DNA of 64,000 nucleotides from the NCBI GenBank assembly GCA_000091205.1, contig AP006497.2. One strand, given 5' to 3'. Below, one piece after another: positions 8,317-17,861 of the stretch (its first letter is position 1; each line of letters starts with the position of its first letter). The translations under genes were made by a program, and so were the position numbers. The notes beneath the pieces are model-generated. The model did no database searches, had not been told where the DNA came from, and saw only the letters and a program-made list of their open reading frames with translations. The DNA comes from Cyanidioschyzon merolae. Lineage: Eukaryota.

Positions 8317-9427
8317 CAAATTAGGCGAAAAGGTGAGGTGTCTGGTTCGTGTACCCGATCGCATGGATAGACATCCACGGATGCCTATTGAAGCACCTGT
8401 AGGAATACTCCTACGAATACCTGCGCGGATACGGCTATGGACACAGGCATGTTCATGGGTGGCAATGGTTGAAGTGCACGATTCGTGCTGGAAACTGCCT
8501 GCAACCTGTCACGTTCACAGTGTGTTGTTGCAACTTGTTTCGCATGCGTCGCCAATGCCGCGTCCCGAGTTTTCTTTTTGTAAAGAACCGCTTTCACCGA
8601 ATACGGTTGGATGCGAATCTTGATGCTCTGGTGGATCATACGCCAGAGACTAGTGGGACCGCTGCAACTGTATATATTCTCAGGACGGCGCTGTTCGTCG
8701 ATCGCGTTTCCAGACACCACACCCGAGCAGTCCATATGATCAGTTCGCATCTATGGGTTCGCCCCGGAGACGCAACGCGGGAGACGTCTTTGCACCCGAT
8801 CCCATGGGTGAATCTGCATCCACCGAGAAAACCGAGTTGAGCGCTTACCTCGTACCGTTTAGGCGATCGCTTTTGAGATCCGATGCTAGCGGGGGTCGGG
8901 GTATCCGCTGACCTTTCTACGACTGGATGCCAGCGCTATGCAGCCTGAACCTCGTCGGAGCTGCTGCTTCGATCGCCATATGAAAACGTGAGATTCGATT
9001 CGTGCAAAGCCAACAAAGAGTCCATATGCAGAATACAAACTTTTCCTTCAGCAAAAGCAGCCTCTTGCAAGTAAGGATCTACGCGAGGTTTGTGGTGTAG
9101 GACCCGTACCTCATTCGCGCTGGGGCGTCTAGAGTGCTGGGGGTCTCCGAGGTGCCCCCGCTGCACGCTCCTGCCCTGCCGCCTGCGCTAAACAACACCT
9201 TTCATATACTGGGCACTCGCGCTCTCTCTACAGGTCCTTCGCTTCATTCATCAGCAAATATCCGCCTGAACGTTTGCCGGCACTGCAACACCAGACTTGG
9301 ATAACTGCATTCAATGAAAGAGTGACGCTCTTTTTCCAACGTAGAGCGCCACCAACCTACAACCGCGTCCTAACCTGCAGCTGTTGCAAGACGCCCTAAC
9401 GAGAGCATCTTCTGTACCGAACAATTT

Positions 9428-9850
9428 CCATACCAGTGCTGCTCCCTAAGCGCTATCCTAACCCAGCGCACAGTGTCTTGAACGGTTTTGTGGTACGCAC
9501 TCGGAAACAGTTGGCGTACCAGTGCTGCTCCCTAAGCGCTACCCTAACCCAGCGCACAGTGTCGTTAACGGTTTTGTGGTACGCACTCGGAAACAGTTGG
9601 CGTACCAGTACTGCTCCCTAAGCGCTACCCTAACCCAGCGCACAGTGTCGTTAACGGTTTTGTGGTACGCACTCGGAAACAGTTGGCGTACCAGTACTGC
9701 TCCCTAAGCGCTACCCTAACCCAGCGCACAGTGTCGTTAACGGTTTTGTGGTACGTACTCGGAAACAGTTGGCGTACCAGTACTGCTCCCTAAGCGCTAT
9801 CCTAACCCAGCGCACAGTGTTGTTAACGGTTTTGTGGTACGTACTCGGAA
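9428..9850. repeat. minisatellite: 86-bp unit x ~4.9 tandem array in 5' flank of peptidase gene
   Basis: Unit ccagtgctgctccctaagcgctaccctaacccagcgcacagtgtcgttaacggttttgtggtacgcactcggaaacagttggcgta repeats at 9433, 9519, 9605, 9691 and 9777. Track ORFs 9436.. and 9522.. (identical 61 aa, GTG starts) and the 5' end of ORF 9748.. are generated by it. Confidence 0.95.
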
Positions 9851-9942
9851 ACGCTCCAGTGGCCGCGTCAGCGTTCGCTGTCCACCTGTGTGCCAGCCCG
9901 TTCAACGAGTGCAGTTCTCTTTTTGAAGATAGAGGCTTCTTT

Positions 9943-11946
9943 ATGCTTCTATTCCAGTCTACACTGGTTCGAGTTTATGTTGTCCGGAGCCCGCCTCGCA
10001 ACCGACAACTGTGTCTCCGCGCTGACTCGAGTCAAGGACGACACCTCCTGGGAGCACGACCTGCACAGCAGACGACGACGACGACAACAACCACTACAAC
10101 TACAACTGCTGCGGCGTCGAGACCGATAACCAAGCTAACAGTATTGCGAGTACAGCAGCGTTTCTGGGAGCGCCATGGAAGCGCTCCAGCGCTGGCTTGT
10201 TCGCAGAGCCCGTTGCAGCCGCACCTGGGCGTCGGTGCAGAGGCTTGCACCCGGCAACGAATCTCAGACCTCAAGCCGAGCGTCGGTGAGCGCCTCCATT
10301 CAGCCTATTATACACGATTGCGGCAAGCTGTGGCGGTAGTTAGAAACTGGGTTTGTGTTGCAAGCGCGCTTCTCTTTGTCTACCTGAGTACCAGCGACCA
10401 GGTGGCCCTGGCGGCTGCCTCACTCGCCAATGGCATGCCTCAAGACCGTCTGGCTCTGGCAACGAGTACGCCCGTTCCAGATCGCTACCGAATTCTTTGG
10501 GAGCAGGCACTGGACATCATCACGAACCTTCACTACCAACCCGGTCAACATATCCATGCAGCCTCGTTAACCATGCCTTCGCACTTGCCGCCTACGCGTG
10601 CGTCCACGATCCCATGGGGATGCTCTCTGGGAACACGTGCCTCGACCTACGATGCCATTCGGATCCGACTCAGTGAATTGAATGATCCCTACTCACGTTT
10701 CCTGGAGCCGGATGAATTTGAGGCGGAACTGAATCCTTACCGGCGAGCTCGGAAGCTCAGCGGGGTCGGCATCATACCGGAGCGCAGTCCAAAAGGCCAC
10801 GGCACGCTGCGCGTTATAGCCGTTATTCCCGAGTCACCGGCTGAGGAGGCCGGAATCAACCCCGGCGATGAACTCGTTATGATTGACGATATTGTCGTCG
10901 AGCCTTCACCTTTGAACCCGATTCCTGTGACCCCCGATGAAGCGTTGGCGTTGCTGCGCGGCCCAGCGGGTACGCGGGTTCGTCTCACTGTGCGACAAAC
11001 GACAAACTCGTTGTCGTACGCTGATGCATCGCTGCAAGTAGCGTCAGCGTCCACAGCGCCGACCTCTATGATGCGTACATATACATTAACGCGGAGACCG
11101 CTTCTGGTAGCTCCGGCTGTCTACGGCCTTGTCGCCGCGGAGCCCACTTTCGGTTACATTCGCCTCCATACCTTCAACGCCGAAGCGACACGTATCGTCT
11201 TCGAGGCTCTGAACGCATTCAAGAATTCTAGCGATCGTTCGGCAGCGGCTGGTGTTATCCTAGACCTGCGCAACTGCCGAGGTGGCGTCTTCCAGGAAGC
11301 ACTGGTGATTGCTTCGATGTTCATCGCAAACCCCGATGCCGTACTCGTCTACACCGTCGACAGTCGGGGTATCGAGCGCGCACACCGGGTGCGTGACCAG
11401 TGGAACGGTTGGCCTGAAGCTCCTGCTGCCGCTGCTCGTACTCCTCGTACTCCTCCTGAGACGCTCGGGAGCGCGGCGTCGGCCCGGCATCCGCTGTACA
11501 ATGGCCCACTGGTGGTGCTCGTCAATGGTGCCTCAGCTTCCAGTAGCGAAGTGCTTGCGATAGCCTTGCGCGATCACGGACGAGCAGTGCTGTTGGGCAT
11601 GCCAACTTTTGGGAAAGCCCGCATCCAACACTACTTCCCGCTTTTGGACGGCTCGGCGATCGCGCTCACTGTCGGGGAGTTTCTCGGCCCGCAGCACGAA
11701 CGCCTCGCGGACCACGTCGGCTTAGTGCCGCAGGTCTCCTGCAACGCTGCACCCCGGAACTTTGCGCTCCTAGAGAGACACACGCCACCAGATGCCTGCA
11801 TCGCAGAGGCAGCTCAGCTGCTAAGCGAAGAACCCACGGGGTCATCGGCTACAGAGCCGGTGCCGGTCGGTGGCTCCGTGCGGTCTGCGTTCACATCCCG
11901 AAGCAGGTCCACTGAAACGACACTGTTGCCTCGGATCCAAACCTGA
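9943..11946 (+). CDS. C-terminal processing peptidase (S41 family, CtpA/tail-specific protease-like) with PDZ domain
   Basis: DPYSRFLEPDEFEA motif, PDZ (GVGIIPERSPKGHGTLRVIAVIPESPAEEAGINPGDELVMIDDIVV) and S41 catalytic region (VILDLRNCRGGVFQEALVIASMFI ... GMPTFGKARIQHYF). Track start 9748 is GTG inside the tandem repeat. The first in-frame ATG is 9943 (MLLFQ...); the next is ~10432, after a hydrophobic segment (WVCVASALLFVYLSTS), so the start is uncertain. ACN-repeat encodes T12. Confidence 0.8.
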   Translation: MLLFQSTLVRVYVVRSPPRNRQLCLRADSSQGRHLLGARPAQQTTTTTTTTTTTTAAASRPITKLTVLRVQQRFWERHGSAPALACSQSPLQPHLGVGAEACTRQRISDLKPSVGERLHSAYYTRLRQAVAVVRNWVCVASALLFVYLSTSDQVALAAASLANGMPQDRLALATSTPVPDRYRILWEQALDIITNLHYQPGQHIHAASLTMPSHLPPTRASTIPWGCSLGTRASTYDAIRIRLSELNDPYSRFLEPDEFEAELNPYRRARKLSGVGIIPERSPKGHGTLRVIAVIPESPAEEAGINPGDELVMIDDIVVEPSPLNPIPVTPDEALALLRGPAGTRVRLTVRQTTNSLSYADASLQVASASTAPTSMMRTYTLTRRPLLVAPAVYGLVAAEPTFGYIRLHTFNAEATRIVFEALNAFKNSSDRSAAAGVILDLRNCRGGVFQEALVIASMFIANPDAVLVYTVDSRGIERAHRVRDQWNGWPEAPAAAARTPRTPPETLGSAASARHPLYNGPLVVLVNGASASSSEVLAIALRDHGRAVLLGMPTFGKARIQHYFPLLDGSAIALTVGEFLGPQHERLADHVGLVPQVSCNAAPRNFALLERHTPPDACIAEAAQLLSEEPTGSSATEPVPVGGSVRSAFTSRSRSTETTLLPRIQT

Positions 11947-12116
11947 CCGAGTTGCGCACCCGTTCGGCAGTCTAGAGCATCCGACAGCACCAGGTTCGCG
12001 TAGTGATCAAAACCGCTGAGTTTTCCGCGCACGCACCTGTTCGCGTTCAGGTACACTTGGACGGAATGAAACAGCAACGCTTCGAGTTCCGCAGTATCGA
12101 CCTCGTCTTTTGCCAT
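11814..12116 (-). CDS. Sm-like protein (SmG/LSm7-like)
   Basis: 100-aa ORF with a genuine ATG (cat at 12114-12116). Sm1 motif VRGKLSGFDHYANLVLSDALD and Sm2 motif LGQVWIRGNSVVSVDLL; compare SmG ..GILRGFDPFMNLVIDE..IGMVVIRGNSI. The C-terminal 28 codons overlap the last ~44 codons of the convergent peptidase gene (11814-11946). Confidence 0.55.
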   Translation of the reverse strand: MAKDEVDTAELEALLFHSVQVYLNANRCVRGKLSGFDHYANLVLSDALDCRTGAQLGQVWIRGNSVVSVDLLRDVNADRTEPPTGTGSVADDPVGSSLSS

Positions 12117-13362
12117 AAACCAAGCTGATCAACAACCAACACGACGCTGGTCAAATGCTTGGACGCACGCGGGTTTCCCACAGCCTGCCAAGACGCCGTC
12201 GCAGGGTACCGGCAAACGCACTTGTGTGTATGTTGCTGAGTTGCGCGACGTTTCTGTGCATATCCGAAGCAGGAGCAGCAGTAGTTCCAGCCCAGGAAGC
12301 CTTTCGTTTCGACCTTTCAGGAACGTGTAGTGCGCACGTCGTTTTGACGAAAAGTCACCTTCCCTGCGATAACCGACGACTCAACCTGGACTGCAGGGTA
12401 AAGTCGTTGCAGCGCGTTCGGGTGTACGCGCGAGCTCCACGAGTCGCCAGTGAGTGCCTCGGCATACCTCGACCTCGACGGTGTTCGTTGAACCCAGAAC
12501 ACGAATTCGGGAGCTTGGTTGCCTCAAGGCGAAAGCGAGCGACAGGCACTTCTCGGAGTCTGTGGGTGTTTCTGGTGCCTATCCCAGTCTGTGGCCGGAG
12601 TGTGTCCGTTCGTCCAGTTCAAGCGGAGGTGTACCGAGTGTCTTGAGCAGCGTGCGGACGTCTGGGTGTCACGGTGGCTCTCTGTGGTGCGTCCTGCCTT
12701 CACGGGCGTGATTCAGACTGCACCCGCGAGCATGCGCTACTCACTCGTGCTGCAAACGCCCGCCACCTGCGCAGTGTTGCAGGCGAGAGACAGCGGAACC
12801 TACCGCTATGCGACTTGGCGTTAGGTGCGTAGGTATATGCGTTTATGCGACGGAAGCAACGTTGTTGTCGAGTACCTGCCCGCGGGTTATCTGGGACCGT
12901 GTTGAGATTCACGTTTACGCATTCTCTATATATGCTGCCTTTAGATGAAGCTGCCGCCTAGCCTAGCCAAGCGCATCTCTTCCTAGGCACCAGAACCCGC
13001 TCTGGTCCAAGATATGCACGCGTATCCATTCCCGGCTTTTTGGTGACGCTCAGGGAGTATTCCTTGTCCGGCTGGGTATGCCACTACTTGATCAGCGCTT
13101 TCAAAAGCAGATGCCAGCCCCGCGCACCAGCGCGTCCAGCGTTTACATTACAGGCTTGCACACCGCCGCTACCCGCTGGTATCATACGCCGGTTTGTCTT
13201 CATCGTGAAGCTCTTCGTTCCACGACTTGCTCTACCAGAGTCTCCGATGCCGCGGTAGCATGTCTGGGAATGCTCTACCTCCGGCAAACGCACACACACT
13301 CACTCCTTCACAACAACAACAACAACAACCAATGGGAATCGAACAAGGCACAGATGCACGCC

Positions 13363-16300
13363 TCAGGTGCCGCTTTCAAGTGCATCCAATCCACGAACGA
13401 CGTGAACGGACATGTGGACTTTGGTGACGCACGAGTTCGCCAACAGGTGCACTGCTCGCCAAACAACATCCGGCTCGATGTCGCCCAGGTGTTGTACTGG
13501 TCGCCGCAACGCCAGCGCATGCGTATGAGAGAGCAGCAGCGACGGGTGCTGCTGCAGCTCCGAACGGATCCTCTGCAGCGCCATGAGTCGACAAGTGTGG
13601 CACGAATGATCGCCCTGGTCAGCAACGTGTCCATCTTGGGGCGTCTGCTGCTCAGGCGAGGCATCGACGGTATCGCGATCCGCATAGAGTTGGAAGTAGC
13701 CGCGGTAGAGGTGTGCATCCAGGGCCGTGCGAAATGCCTCATCCTCAATGGCTTCCGCGACGCTCAACAGACCCACTACGGCTGCGGGTTGAGAGCCGGT
13801 GATCAGATTCGGCTCTCGATAGTACTTGTGGCGATTGGCAATCACATTTTCGTTGAAAACGGGCGCCCGTGAAATAGCTGTCGCTGTGAAATGCGAAAAC
13901 TCAGCGATGCCGTAGAAGAACAGGGGGTTCGTCGTTCCCGTCTGCAGGTACAGATCATTGAGTACACGTGACCACGGCAGGCCTGCTGGTATTTTCTTGG
14001 AGCCAGCATTGGTACCCTGAACCCCGGTAGGCAATTGCACGCCGGGCGCCTCGTATGATACGTAAAAGTCGGGTACAGCACCCTGGGGCATGCCCAGGAA
14101 CGCGACACTCGAGAGGTACCGTCCACGCACCGTGCGGTAGTACTCGGCTGGTGGCGCCTCAGGCGCTTCCGCTGGGCTTTGCTGCTGATTGCTGGTCCCG
14201 TCGGACGTCGCTGGAGACGTTGCTGCTGGCAGTTCACCGGTCAGCGTACAATACGCAGTCCCGTGAACGATGATGGCTTCACCCATGGTCTCCGGCGGAC
14301 GACCGTCCACGGTGCCCAGCTCAAAACCCGCAATATAGTCTTGGGAATCGATTGGAATCCGCGACAGCGCCTCTACGGACGGTATCTTACCCTCGATGAG
14401 GTTCCGCACGGAGCCCAGCGCTCGTGCTCGGCTGCCTGGCGGTTGTGGTGCATGTGGATGCAGGTTGTAGACCTTGACCGGGCTCTGGTTGGAATCCGGA
14501 CTGGACTCCAGCGGCTCTACCAGGAGTTTCTGGGAGGCGATGCAACCGAAAAAGTCGCCACTGCGCAGTAGCTGCAAAAGATATTCGCGATCCTCAGTTG
14601 ACAACGCGGCGCTCGCGGCAACATCCTCCGTTTCGCCCGCGGATTCAGCGTCCATCCGCTGACGCTGTCGATGCACCATGATAAAGCTGTCGAAAACCTG
14701 GCGGGCAATCCGCATCTCTTCGGGTGAGATGAGTCCGTCGTTGTCCAGGTCAAAGATACTCAACAGCTCCATGTCGCTAGCAGTGAGCGCCTCGGTAGGC
14801 AGGTATTCGGCAATCAGACGCAATACTGGTACCCGGTTGCTTTCCACGGTGGCGTACTCGGCCTTGAGCTCAGGGCTCTCGACCAGATCGATGAGGAACG
14901 AGTGCCGGGCATCGCCTCGTTGCTGTGCAGCAAGAGCGGACTCCAACGCCGCCGGTGCTTCCGCTGGTCGCTGGACGCGGGCGAAGCCCATACGGTACGC
15001 CTGGGCGAGTCGCTGCAAGTCTGGAAGGATGATTTCGTCGCCAGCGACGCCAGTATTCCCAAAGCGTACCCGTCCCATAACGCCGTTGCGGAGGACAATC
15101 ACGACAAGGTTATCGAGGCCCTGCTGCAGGGCAGTTCCAAGTTCCTGTTCAGCCATTTCGAAACCGCCATCGCCAGTGATGAGGTAGACGACACCCTCGC
15201 TTTTGCGTCTCTTCAGCGAGACGCCCATCGAAACGGCAGCCGGAACCGCGTACCCCATACTGCCCATGTTGATGCTGGAAAGCAGACGCGTTCCCTGCCC
15301 ATCGAAACAGAGGCAGAGACCTGCCCAGATGGTAACATCTCCGATATCCACAACCACAACATCGTCTGGACCAAGTTTCGCGGACAAGGCGGTGAGCAGG
15401 TGGCGCGGATGACAGAAGCCGCGTACCTCATCATCGCCCTCGTCAGCGGTATCGTCTGTGTCCAGCATGGAGCGCCTGCCAGTGACCATAGCGTGTGGCG
15501 TTTTGCTCAAAACTGCAGCACGACGCGGCGATGAAGGCAATGAAGCTTGACGCTCACGCCATTCACCGTCTAAAAAGTACTTCCAGAGCCGGCTCGAGTA
15601 GTCCCGGGCCTGTTGAGGGCCCGGCGGCAGCATGCGCTTTGATTGCATCTCCCGCACGCTCGCTGTTAGTGCGCTCAGCAGGGCCTCCAATTCAGGATCG
15701 ATAAGCATACACTCCACATGGTAGTAGACCTGGAGGCGCGTAGCCAGTGTATCGTCTACACCGAATACTCGGACCTGCTGTTGACCAGTAGAATCGAGCA
15801 CGACTGGATCGCAACGATCGACGCCTATCGCCAGAATACACTCGGCAGTGCTGACGAGGGCCCGCGGCGCTGCCATGCCGGGGTTCCCAAAGATCCCGTC
15901 AACACCGAGTACCAGCGGGTGATGCTCATCGACGGCACCCTTGGCGTCCAGTGTGGTAATCACCGGCGCACAGAGCGTTTCTGCGAGTTTCAAAATCGTA
16001 CTCGAGCAACGAGCCTGTGCTGCACGCAACCCGCACAGAATGACGACGCGATGTCCCAGCAGAAGGCGTCCAGCGTGCTCCACGGAAACGGCAGCGCAGC
16101 GCGGTACCTCGGCAATATGAAAGGGAAGGCGAGCCAGGGCGCTCTCGTCTGAGGGCGACGTCTGCACATCTACTGGTATCGCCAGATGTGCTGCTGTGCT
16201 TCGCTCCAGGGCGAAGCGGATAGCCGAGTCCAGCAGAGAAAGGAAGCGATCGGCAGTCATGGGGGCCTTGGCAAACTGGACGCCTGCTCCGTGCATCAGT

Positions 16301-16674
16301 TGTGCTGTTCGGGTGTCCTGGAAGCCCTCGTGTCCGATGTTACTCCGCGACACGAGGCCGCTGAGTAGGAGCACCGGCACAGAGTCCGCAAGCGCATCCA
16401 CCATGCCGCACACGGTGTAGGCGGCACCCGGACCCGAGGTGGTAACGCACACACCCAGCTTCCGATAATACTTGGCGTATGCAGATGCGGCAAACGGTGC
16501 GGCAGTTTCGTTTCGAACGAGAACCCAGTGCAGACGTGGATGCTGCACAATCGCTGTGATAAGAGGACTCGCAGCTGCTCCGTGTCCACCGAACACGAGC
16601 TCCACGTTTGCCGCCGCAAGCCGGTCTGCAATCAGGTTCGCAATGGTGTACGTGCTACCACGACTCGCTGGCAT
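13363..16674 (-). CDS. thiamine-diphosphate-dependent enzyme (acetolactate synthase / 2-hydroxyacyl-CoA lyase superfamily) fused to an EF-hand and a ~400-aa C-terminal domain of unknown function
   Basis: N-terminal Pyr domain (GVCVTTSGPGAAYTVCGMVDALADSVPVLLLSG...GFQD) and C-terminal TPP-binding GDG...N motif (VYLITGDGGFEMAEQELGTALQQGLDNLVVIVLRNGVMG). A canonical EF-hand loop (DLDNDGLISPEEM) follows ~60 aa later, then ~400 aa with no recognisable domain, all in one uninterrupted 1103-codon frame. Track start 16695 is TTG; the first ATG gives MPASRGSTYTIANL at 16674. Confidence 0.8.
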   Translation of the reverse strand: MPASRGSTYTIANLIADRLAAANVELVFGGHGAAASPLITAIVQHPRLHWVLVRNETAAPFAASAYAKYYRKLGVCVTTSGPGAAYTVCGMVDALADSVPVLLLSGLVSRSNIGHEGFQDTRTAQLMHGAGVQFAKAPMTADRFLSLLDSAIRFALERSTAAHLAIPVDVQTSPSDESALARLPFHIAEVPRCAAVSVEHAGRLLLGHRVVILCGLRAAQARCSSTILKLAETLCAPVITTLDAKGAVDEHHPLVLGVDGIFGNPGMAAPRALVSTAECILAIGVDRCDPVVLDSTGQQQVRVFGVDDTLATRLQVYYHVECMLIDPELEALLSALTASVREMQSKRMLPPGPQQARDYSSRLWKYFLDGEWRERQASLPSSPRRAAVLSKTPHAMVTGRRSMLDTDDTADEGDDEVRGFCHPRHLLTALSAKLGPDDVVVVDIGDVTIWAGLCLCFDGQGTRLLSSINMGSMGYAVPAAVSMGVSLKRRKSEGVVYLITGDGGFEMAEQELGTALQQGLDNLVVIVLRNGVMGRVRFGNTGVAGDEIILPDLQRLAQAYRMGFARVQRPAEAPAALESALAAQQRGDARHSFLIDLVESPELKAEYATVESNRVPVLRLIAEYLPTEALTASDMELLSIFDLDNDGLISPEEMRIARQVFDSFIMVHRQRQRMDAESAGETEDVAASAALSTEDREYLLQLLRSGDFFGCIASQKLLVEPLESSPDSNQSPVKVYNLHPHAPQPPGSRARALGSVRNLIEGKIPSVEALSRIPIDSQDYIAGFELGTVDGRPPETMGEAIIVHGTAYCTLTGELPAATSPATSDGTSNQQQSPAEAPEAPPAEYYRTVRGRYLSSVAFLGMPQGAVPDFYVSYEAPGVQLPTGVQGTNAGSKKIPAGLPWSRVLNDLYLQTGTTNPLFFYGIAEFSHFTATAISRAPVFNENVIANRHKYYREPNLITGSQPAAVVGLLSVAEAIEDEAFRTALDAHLYRGYFQLYADRDTVDASPEQQTPQDGHVADQGDHSCHTCRLMALQRIRSELQQHPSLLLSHTHALALRRPVQHLGDIEPDVVWRAVHLLANSCVTKVHMSVHVVRGLDALESGT

Positions 16675-17861
16675 CTTGGAGGTGGTACTATTCAATGCTT
16701 CAGCACGCGCCCAGTCAAGTTCTTGGTGCTGGTCGAGCGTCTGTCTCTGGAGTTACCGCTTGTGTGAGGCGTTACGGGTAGCCTGCGGTGGCAACTTGAT
16801 CGAACCGTGCGCTCTCTGAGCAAAGCCTCCACTGGATACCTTCGGGCAACGCGAGCTGAGCGAAATGCAGCCACAAACTATCGTCTACGAACTTTGAAGC
16901 GACTCTGAGATAGGACCTAGCGACGCAGTTCACCCTGAAAAGTCGATGTTCGGTTGCGAGCAGGCAGAGCAGCTTGTTCAGTCTGATACGTCAGCAACTG
17001 CCTCTCTGGAATACACCTTTTATTGGCAGCGCTCCCTGATTATAAACACTGTTTGCAATCACCTCTCCAGATTTATGGGATGCACTCGTCACACTGGTTC
17101 TGTGGAGTCGCGTTCAGGCCGGTGCGCCAACAAGTGCCTCCCTGGACCAAACCGGTTATTGAGGGTGCTCGCCGATGAAACACACCGTTCGCAGTCGCTT
17201 TTCCAGATCTATAAGATGCACTTGTCAAACCTGTTCCCTCGAGTCGCGTTTCGCGCTGTGGCACTCCCTCGAGGAGGCAAGTGGTTGCGTAGGACACGAG
17301 GCCGCCTGCCGGTCGTTGCAACGTCTGGTACCCCGAGCGCGATACGATGCGTCTCGCGTGGCTCTGGAGCCGTGTGGAGCACCCGCCACCCAGCGACTGT
17401 GAGGCCGAAAGCCCAGCGATGCAGATCATCAGGAGTGCCGCTCAACCGGGATCATCGAACTTCATCTGATTCCGCTTCAGCTCAGTTAACTCCAATGAAT
17501 TCCAGTTTATCTCTTCTGACCTCATTCCATCTCAAATGATCCCACTCGTTGGGATAGCAAGGACGCTTGGTAATTTTGCAGGGTACGCATCAGGAATATA
17601 AGAGCTATCATGAATACTCATCACGAGAGGCACTTGGCGCTGGGAGAGTCCCACGAACGAATGAAAGGATCACCGGAGGCAAGTATAGGTCATGGCGAGT
17701 GGTCAGCAGAACGCTCGGGAGAGATCGTGAGGCGTCATCACGACTGCCTGCCCGGAAACCGATACGCGTCGTGCAGTTGGGAATCCCTGTTTGCTCTACG
17801 CGATGCAACGTCATGGTTATCCATCGAGGGTGGCGCTCGGGCTGGTCTACTGGAGCGCGTG

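Follow-up and report, generated by a model that had tools for sequence, protein, structure and literature searches.

Convergent SmG and S41 Peptidase Genes of Cyanidioschyzon merolae Overlap in Their Coding Ends, Probably through Neutral Extension of Both Reading Frames

The 64,000-nucleotide stretch of Cyanidioschyzon merolae nuclear DNA analyzed here (contig AP006497.2 of assembly GCA_000091205.1; hereafter the window) carries two convergent genes—one assigned by homology to the Sm protein SmG, the other to the S41 family of C-terminal processing peptidases—whose coding sequences overlap tail to tail by 133 nt. Both genes have existing annotations, and their overlap is genuine and conserved. 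We attribute it, with a probability of roughly 0.8, to a neutral process in which both reading frames lengthened across a tail-to-tail junction that was already very short in the ancestor, so that the two mRNAs unavoidably overlap in antisense. An earlier note on this DNA had reported the overlap and offered two explanations for it: very compact gene packing with obligatory antisense transcript overlap, or a C-terminal tail that is not actually translated. The evidence favors the first of these, applied locally. The pair is a fresh, well-documented case of a known type of overlap and brings no new mechanism.

Two Convergent Genes End Inside Each Other

Coding sequence meets coding sequence at the 3′ ends of the two genes, as the earlier note had claimed, and the stop codon of each gene lies inside the coding sequence (CDS) of its partner (Table 1). 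That note counted ~44 terminal peptidase codons in the overlap, which is correct (43 sense codons plus the stop). Its count for SmG, the last 28 codons, was wrong: the overlap takes in SmG codons 58–100, the stop, and the third base of codon 57, again 43 sense codons plus the stop. The Sm2 motif of SmG faces the last nine peptidase sense codons and one base of the codon before, and the last nine peptidase residues, TTLLPRIQT, are the antisense reading of that motif.

The codons of one gene dictate where the other can stop. For the phase of this overlap we derived the rule that a stop needs NNY-Tyr or NNT-His/Gln on the opposite strand. SmG residues 59–75 include no Tyr, His, or Gln, and the peptidase frame therefore cannot stop opposite them; the peptidase stop stands at the first site where the SmG codons permit one in its frame.

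Table 1. Features of the SmG/peptidase junction (positions in the window)
Feature	Position	Strand	Details
S41 (Ctp/Prc-type) C-terminal processing peptidase CDS	9943..11946	+	667 aa; PDZ and S41 domains
Last structured, conserved peptidase helix, ACIAEAAQLLSE	11794..11829	+	residues 618–629; from AlphaFold and alignment
Peptidase C-terminal tail	11833..11943	+	residues 631–667; lineage-specific; predicted disordered
Peptidase stop TGA	11944..11946	+	antisense of the third base of SmG Gly57 (GGT) and the first two bases of Gln58 (CAG)
Coding–coding overlap	11814..11946	both	133 nt; third codon positions of both strands coincide
SmG CDS	11814..12116	−	100 aa; ATG 12116–12114, stop TGA 11816–11814
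Sm fold	11901..12095	−	residues 8–72 (8–71 in the AlphaFold model)
Sm1 motif, GKLSGFDHYANLVLSDA	11976..12026	−	residues 31–47; outside the overlap
Sm2 motif, VWIRGNSVV	11916..11942	−	residues 59–67; inside the overlap
SmG C-terminal tail	11817..11900	−	residues 73–100; predicted disordered; ~18 aa longer than in Cyanidium
SmG stop TGA	11814..11816	−	antisense of the last base of peptidase Ala624 (GCT) and the first two bases of Gln625 (CAG), inside the last conserved helix
Candidate poly(A) signal TAAA of the peptidase gene	12116..12119	+	+169 nt from the stop; overlaps the SmG ATG (CATAAA)

Conserved Cores Face Fast-Evolving Tails

Substitutions were counted between two related loci, that of Cyanidiococcus yangmingshanensis (L007) and that of a Cyanidiococcus-like lineage (L009), which align without gaps across the junction. 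Counts were kept by shared codon-position class, in the order plus-strand position 1/minus-strand position 2, plus-strand position 2/minus-strand position 1, and position 3 of both. Differences concentrate in the third class in the peptidase core (9/71, 7/71, and 32/70), in the SmG core outside the overlap (3/49, 6/49, and 23/48), and in the SmG core opposite the peptidase tail (1/18, 1/18, and 6/18). The spacer in which tail faces tail shows 11/25, 10/25, and 16/25 and is 49% diverged overall. This pattern indicates that the peptidase and SmG cores are under purifying selection and that the tail-versus-tail spacer evolves almost neutrally. Each tail keeps 8 identical residues of 25–26 between the same two loci, and out-of-frame control translations keep 6–8 of 25. 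In the three lineages sampled we found neither amino-acid-level constraint on the tails nor frame openness beyond chance. Nowhere do two constrained segments lie opposite each other; each conserved core faces only the disordered tail of its partner.

Identity of the Two Proteins

The small open reading frame (ORF) has the ATG start and the 100 codons described in the earlier note, and its protein is identical to an annotated one (BAM81665.1/XP_005537701.1, "similar to Sm protein G [Cyanidioschyzon merolae 10D]"). The Sm1 and Sm2 motifs recognized there are borne out by a Pfam LSM match over residues 11–69 (53.7 bits against a 23.4-bit cutoff, E = 1.7e-14); residues invariant in alignments are G31, G35, D37, N41, V43, and L44 in Sm1 and R62, G63, and N64 in Sm2. 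Of the proposed kin, SmG/LSm7, the first half stands. The top eight PDB sequence matches are all SmG chains (E 1e-10 to 5e-7), and the best solved-structure relative by sequence is Chlamydomonas 8xi2_g (E = 1.2e-10). LSm7 is not among the matches of that search, where SmE, SmF, SmB, LSm8, and LSm5 are weaker than the SmG chains by 3 to 8 orders of magnitude. By these sequence comparisons, the ORF is an SmG (SNRPG) orthologue, nearer SmG than other Sm/LSm paralogues.

The AlphaFold model agrees. A helix (H8–13) is followed by five strands, and the mean predicted local distance difference test score (pLDDT) is 94–97 per 10-residue block over residues 11–70. The model fits Chlamydomonas SmG with a root-mean-square deviation of 0.7 Å and a template-modeling score of 0.94, and Foldseek returns Sm/LSm chains with probability 1.00. 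Like canonical SmG (SNRPG/Smx2), the C. merolae protein has the Sm fold and Sm1/Sm2 with the invariant Asp/Asn and Arg-Gly-Asn. Unlike canonical SmG, which has ~76–82 aa, it has 100 aa, with an extra ~25-aa disordered tail encoded antisense to the neighboring gene. In alignments, ordinary SmG proteins stop where this tail begins; residues 72–100, which include TEPPTGTGSVADDPVGSSLSS and NADRTEPPTGTGSVADDPVGSSLSS, have low pLDDT and no secondary structure in the model. Canonical SmG belongs to the seven-protein Sm core of spliceosomal small nuclear ribonucleoproteins, and the C. merolae protein would be predicted to assemble in the heptameric Sm ring on the Sm sites of small nuclear RNAs. The C. 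merolae spliceosome, where SmG belongs, is reported to lack U1 (bioRxiv 10.64898/2026.05.17.725761).

For the peptidase, the start was taken as the first ATG (9943) of the plus-strand ORF. Pfam finds Peptidase_S41 (8.5e-37, 126.7 bits) and PDZ_6 (9e-12, 45 bits), both above their cutoffs. Ser533 and Lys558, which we take from motif knowledge to be the catalytic dyad, are invariant in 14 homologues. The earlier label, CtpA-type, was right about the S41 and PDZ domains, and CtpA is indeed the best NCBIfam model; at 203 bits against a 625-bit cutoff, this is resemblance only, and TIGR00225 also falls below its cutoff (180 vs. 218.6). Judged on these matches, the protein is an S41 peptidase of Ctp type and not a demonstrated CtpA, the D1-processing protease. 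It shares with the CtpA/Prc/Tsp family the PDZ and S41 domains and the invariant Ser and Lys in GSASxSE and TxGKG motifs; it departs from that family in a lengthy, disordered N-terminal extension, in insertions within the chain, and in the 37 disordered residues of its C-terminal tail. In alignments, the bacterial and Cyanidium peptidases terminate just past the helix of residues 618–629, and tail residues 631–667 have pLDDT < 50 and no secondary structure in the AlphaFold model. Within the disordered N-terminal region, a poly-threonine tract (~10065–10100) carries a 6-nt length polymorphism among C. merolae strains (variants at 10071–10076), which gives proteins of 665 or 667 aa.

Junctions in Living Relatives

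The gene order SelO, S41 peptidase, SmG, thiamine pyrophosphate (TPP) enzyme, with the peptidase and SmG genes convergent, is conserved, and the junction forms a graded series in living relatives from an 85-nt gap through interlocked stops to an overlap of 133–142 nt. The gap, in a different phase, occurs in a distant Cyanidiophyceae-like lineage of 71% GC (L010), whose SmG has 80 aa. Cyanidium caldarium (L008) and the related L011 overlap by 4 nt at the palindrome CCTAGG and have an SmG of 77 aa; in L008 (7684–7689) both convergent genes take their TAG stop from this one palindrome. The overlap reaches 142 nt in L007 and 133 nt in both L009 and C. merolae, all three with an SmG of 100 aa. Codon phase is identical in all five abutting or overlapping loci.

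The L007 and L009 peptidases end in ...TTPLPRTQT, again the Sm2 motif read in antisense. In Cyanidiococcus, the extended peptidase end is kept by two independent GenBank annotations (P0003 and P0005), and the adjacent 100-aa SmG is annotated as well (P0036). Peptidase identity between the genera is 55% in full-length alignment and 64% in the best local alignment.

From peptidase helix to Sm2 the distance is ~93 nt in C. merolae vs. 62 nt in Cyanidium. The DNA between the cores is no shorter in C. merolae, and the overlap is therefore due to the positions of the stops, not to deletion. These positions drift: the peptidase of L007 has 3 additional codons, and relative to the peptidase helix the stop of SmG has moved by 3 codons. 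At the junction the three overlapping lineages differ only by an in-frame 9-nt indel.

The earlier note had asked whether orthologous SmG proteins end before the overlap, for example through an unrecognized intron, and whether the tails are conserved. Shorter SmG proteins do occur, in Cyanidium and L010, where the cause is an earlier stop codon and not an intron. The tails are present in Cyanidiococcus, with near-neutral sequence, and absent in Cyanidium, L010, and bacteria. Among ten independent C. merolae-like assemblies (strain and metagenome, ~99% identical), 11814–11946 holds 0 variants; about 1 would be expected in the overlap across the ten, and the invariance is hence uninformative on constraint.

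A metagenome scan for further Cyanidiales lineages yielded nothing beyond bacterial S41 genes and contigs nearly identical to C. merolae. The L010 contig itself (Logan SRR31152685, 7235 bp) carries, besides the convergent peptidase and SmG genes (37% and 31% identity), an Nnf1 gene, and may come from an unsampled relative of Cyanidiales.

Chance Openness and Local Spacing

Open frames of this length are not rare in the overlap phase. Across 14 window genes, the antisense frame in that phase has 0.026 stops per codon, which gives a probability of ~0.3 that at least 44 codons stay open, and when the spacer is shuffled with its composition preserved, neither frame contains a stop in 25–41% of trials. 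Once the genes abut, an overlap of this length is unremarkable; the unusual feature is that almost no space separates them. Reported intergenic distances average 1890 bp for C. merolae, 930 bp for Cyanidiococcus, and 320 bp for Cyanidium (PMC9812998). Against the C. merolae mean, the SmG/peptidase junction is therefore a local outlier, and the "very compact gene packing" of the earlier note describes the near-zero spacing here and not a genome that averages ~1.9 kb between genes. Nozaki 2007 does not mention overlaps.

Transcription and Translation across the Junction

A scan of 11400–12300 found no 5′ splice-site-like or branch-point-like signal able to remove either tail and no GTAAGT-like 5′ splice site on the plus strand; the minus strand has a single GT[AG]AG (11669), located past the SmG stop and lacking a matching branch point. 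Only 39 introns are reported in the whole C. merolae genome (bioRxiv 10.64898/2026.05.17.725761). Neither frame contains an in-frame stop before 11944 (plus) or 11816 (minus). Because we found neither introns nor earlier stops, we infer that translation of each frame continues to its stop; for SmG, translation must at any rate take in the Sm2 portion of the overlap. Rfam gave no RNA match in 9000–14000, and no inverted repeats were found at the junction.

Antisense overlap of the transcripts, which the earlier note called obligatory, would follow from the anatomy of the genes. Poly(A) sites in C. merolae are reported to follow a UAAA signal, with cleavage ~17 nt further on (PMC8831791). Of 15 window genes, 11 have their first TAAA 0–270 nt past the stop, and coding sequence is depleted of this motif. 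If the TAAA at 12116–12119 is used, the 3′ untranslated region (UTR) of the peptidase mRNA probably spans the whole SmG CDS in antisense. In L007, a TAAA directly follows the SmG stop; in C. merolae, the first minus-strand UAAA after SmG stands at 9970–9980, about the 5′ end of the peptidase gene. Convergent loci free of transcript overlap number only 39 genome-wide (PMC12874030), and Argonaute and Dicer have been lost in Cyanidiophyceae (PMC12770821).

Neutral Extension and Its Alternatives

Neutral extension would run as follows. A nuclear convergent pair, SmG and a plastid-type S41 peptidase, with functional cores ~70–90 nt apart, would go back to the common ancestor of Cyanidiales. With no stop in either frame of the short spacer, ribosomes on both mRNAs of the Cyanidioschyzon/Cyanidiococcus lineage would read on. 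SmG would thereby gain a disordered tail of ~25 aa, ending at a TGA antisense to Ala624–Gln625 in the last peptidase helix. The peptidase would gain a disordered tail of ~37 aa, running through the antisense of Sm2 and ending at a TGA antisense to SmG Gly57–Gln58. Both tails would be translated as essentially unconstrained passengers. The 3′ ends of the mRNAs would necessarily be complementary, a condition presumably tolerated in a lineage that lacks Dicer and Argonaute and in which convergent transcript overlap is the rule.

Several points weigh against this account. All three overlapping lineages are open in both frames, their junctions are separated by nothing other than a frame-preserving indel, and SmG is exactly 100 aa in each; together these could be at most a weak hint of selection. 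If the lineages were independent, which they are not, the product of their shuffle probabilities would be ~0.04. Translation of the tails and the 3′ ends of the mRNAs are deduced from sequence, and the SmG strand has no TAAA for 1836 nt past the stop.

The best-surviving alternative is that selection keeps the overlap, either through functional tails, such as an SmG tail that compensates in a reduced spliceosome, or through antisense pairing of the mRNAs that couples expression. In its favor, three diverged lineages have retained the overlap in one and the same phase, with the in-frame indel and the constant SmG length just described, and in C. merolae as in L007 the candidate peptidase poly(A) signal lies at or just past the start of SmG. 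Yet the tails are near-neutral, with amino-acid identity equal to that of out-of-frame controls, and are predicted to be disordered; frame openness is within chance; stop positions drift by 3 codons between lineages; Cyanidium and L010 manage without the overlap; and there is no RNA interference (RNAi) machinery to act on double-stranded RNA (PMC12770821). We regard selection as unlikely. A more specific version looks more doubtful still: that the overlap has been selected since before the Cyanidioschyzon/Cyanidiococcus split, with the peptidase mRNA modulating SmG expression or the SmG tail acting in the U1-less spliceosome. If that modulation were true, it would tie a plastid protease to the output of a minimal spliceosome.

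The second explanation in the earlier note, that one tail goes untranslated through an unrecognized intron, an earlier mRNA 3′ end, or misannotation, could draw on two observations: the C-terminal extensions are absent from Cyanidium, L010, and bacterial orthologues, and SmG has no canonical UAAA downstream. The scanned interval, however, offers no usable splice signals in a genome with 39 introns; neither frame stops earlier, so that an mRNA ending before the stop would be a non-stop message; and the same extended ORFs are in frame in Cyanidiococcus, where two annotations keep the peptidase end. An untranslated tail is thus unsupported, and we consider it very improbable.

Two artifactual readings, a small ORF that arose by chance antisense to a gene in GC-rich DNA and an overlap created by a frameshift error in sequencing or assembly, are effectively refuted: long antisense ORFs are common in the C. 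merolae genome and the window holds other, evidently spurious ones, but this ORF has strong Sm homology, its own codon-position substitution pattern, conservation in five other loci, and identical DNA in 10 independent assemblies.

Comparison with Known Overlaps

Williams and colleagues are said to have described, in PNAS in 2005, overlapping gene expression at high frequency in compacted eukaryotic genomes. The SmG/peptidase pair resembles the cis-natural antisense pairs of such genomes (microsporidia, nucleomorphs, yeast) in its tail-to-tail genes with no room for separate 3′UTRs, in overlap that would be tolerated without RNAi, and in a probable origin in reduction of the intergenic spacer. 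It differs in that the coding frames themselves overlap by 133 nt, not the UTRs alone, and in that it is a local outlier in a genome of ~1.9-kb mean spacing rather than a product of global compaction, conserved across two genera.

In viral and bacterial overprinted coding regions, at least one of the proteins is intrinsically disordered where the frames overlap. Here, too, structured segments face disordered, fast-evolving segments of the partner, and partner codons dictate the stops. Unlike those systems, the overlap is antisense rather than same-strand, the genes are nuclear and eukaryotic, and there is no sign that either tail gained function.

Under neutral extension, the junction would be a clean, datable example of two nuclear eukaryotic genes that slid harmlessly into coding–coding antisense overlap. 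For annotation of Cyanidiales genomes, neither tail should be trimmed. Knockouts, tags, and 3′ insertions at either gene in C. merolae, a model alga, will disrupt the other, and unstranded RNA-seq is unable to separate SmG from the peptidase gene.

Other Features of the Region

Directly upstream of the peptidase ATG lies a tandem repeat (9431–9852; 86-nt unit, 4.9 copies, 97% identical), which yields a run of repeated short ORFs. Between SmG and the TPP-enzyme gene, metagenome pipelines call a 163-aa ATG ORF (12155–12646, plus strand; L001–L006); it has no family match and may be spurious. The TPP enzyme itself (13363–16695, minus strand; 1110 aa) has acetolactate-synthase-like N, M, and C domains, weak EF-hand matches, and a C-terminal extension of ~450 aa with no Pfam match. 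Its gene adjoins SmG in all four Cyanidiales loci that reach that far (L007, L008, L009, and L011).

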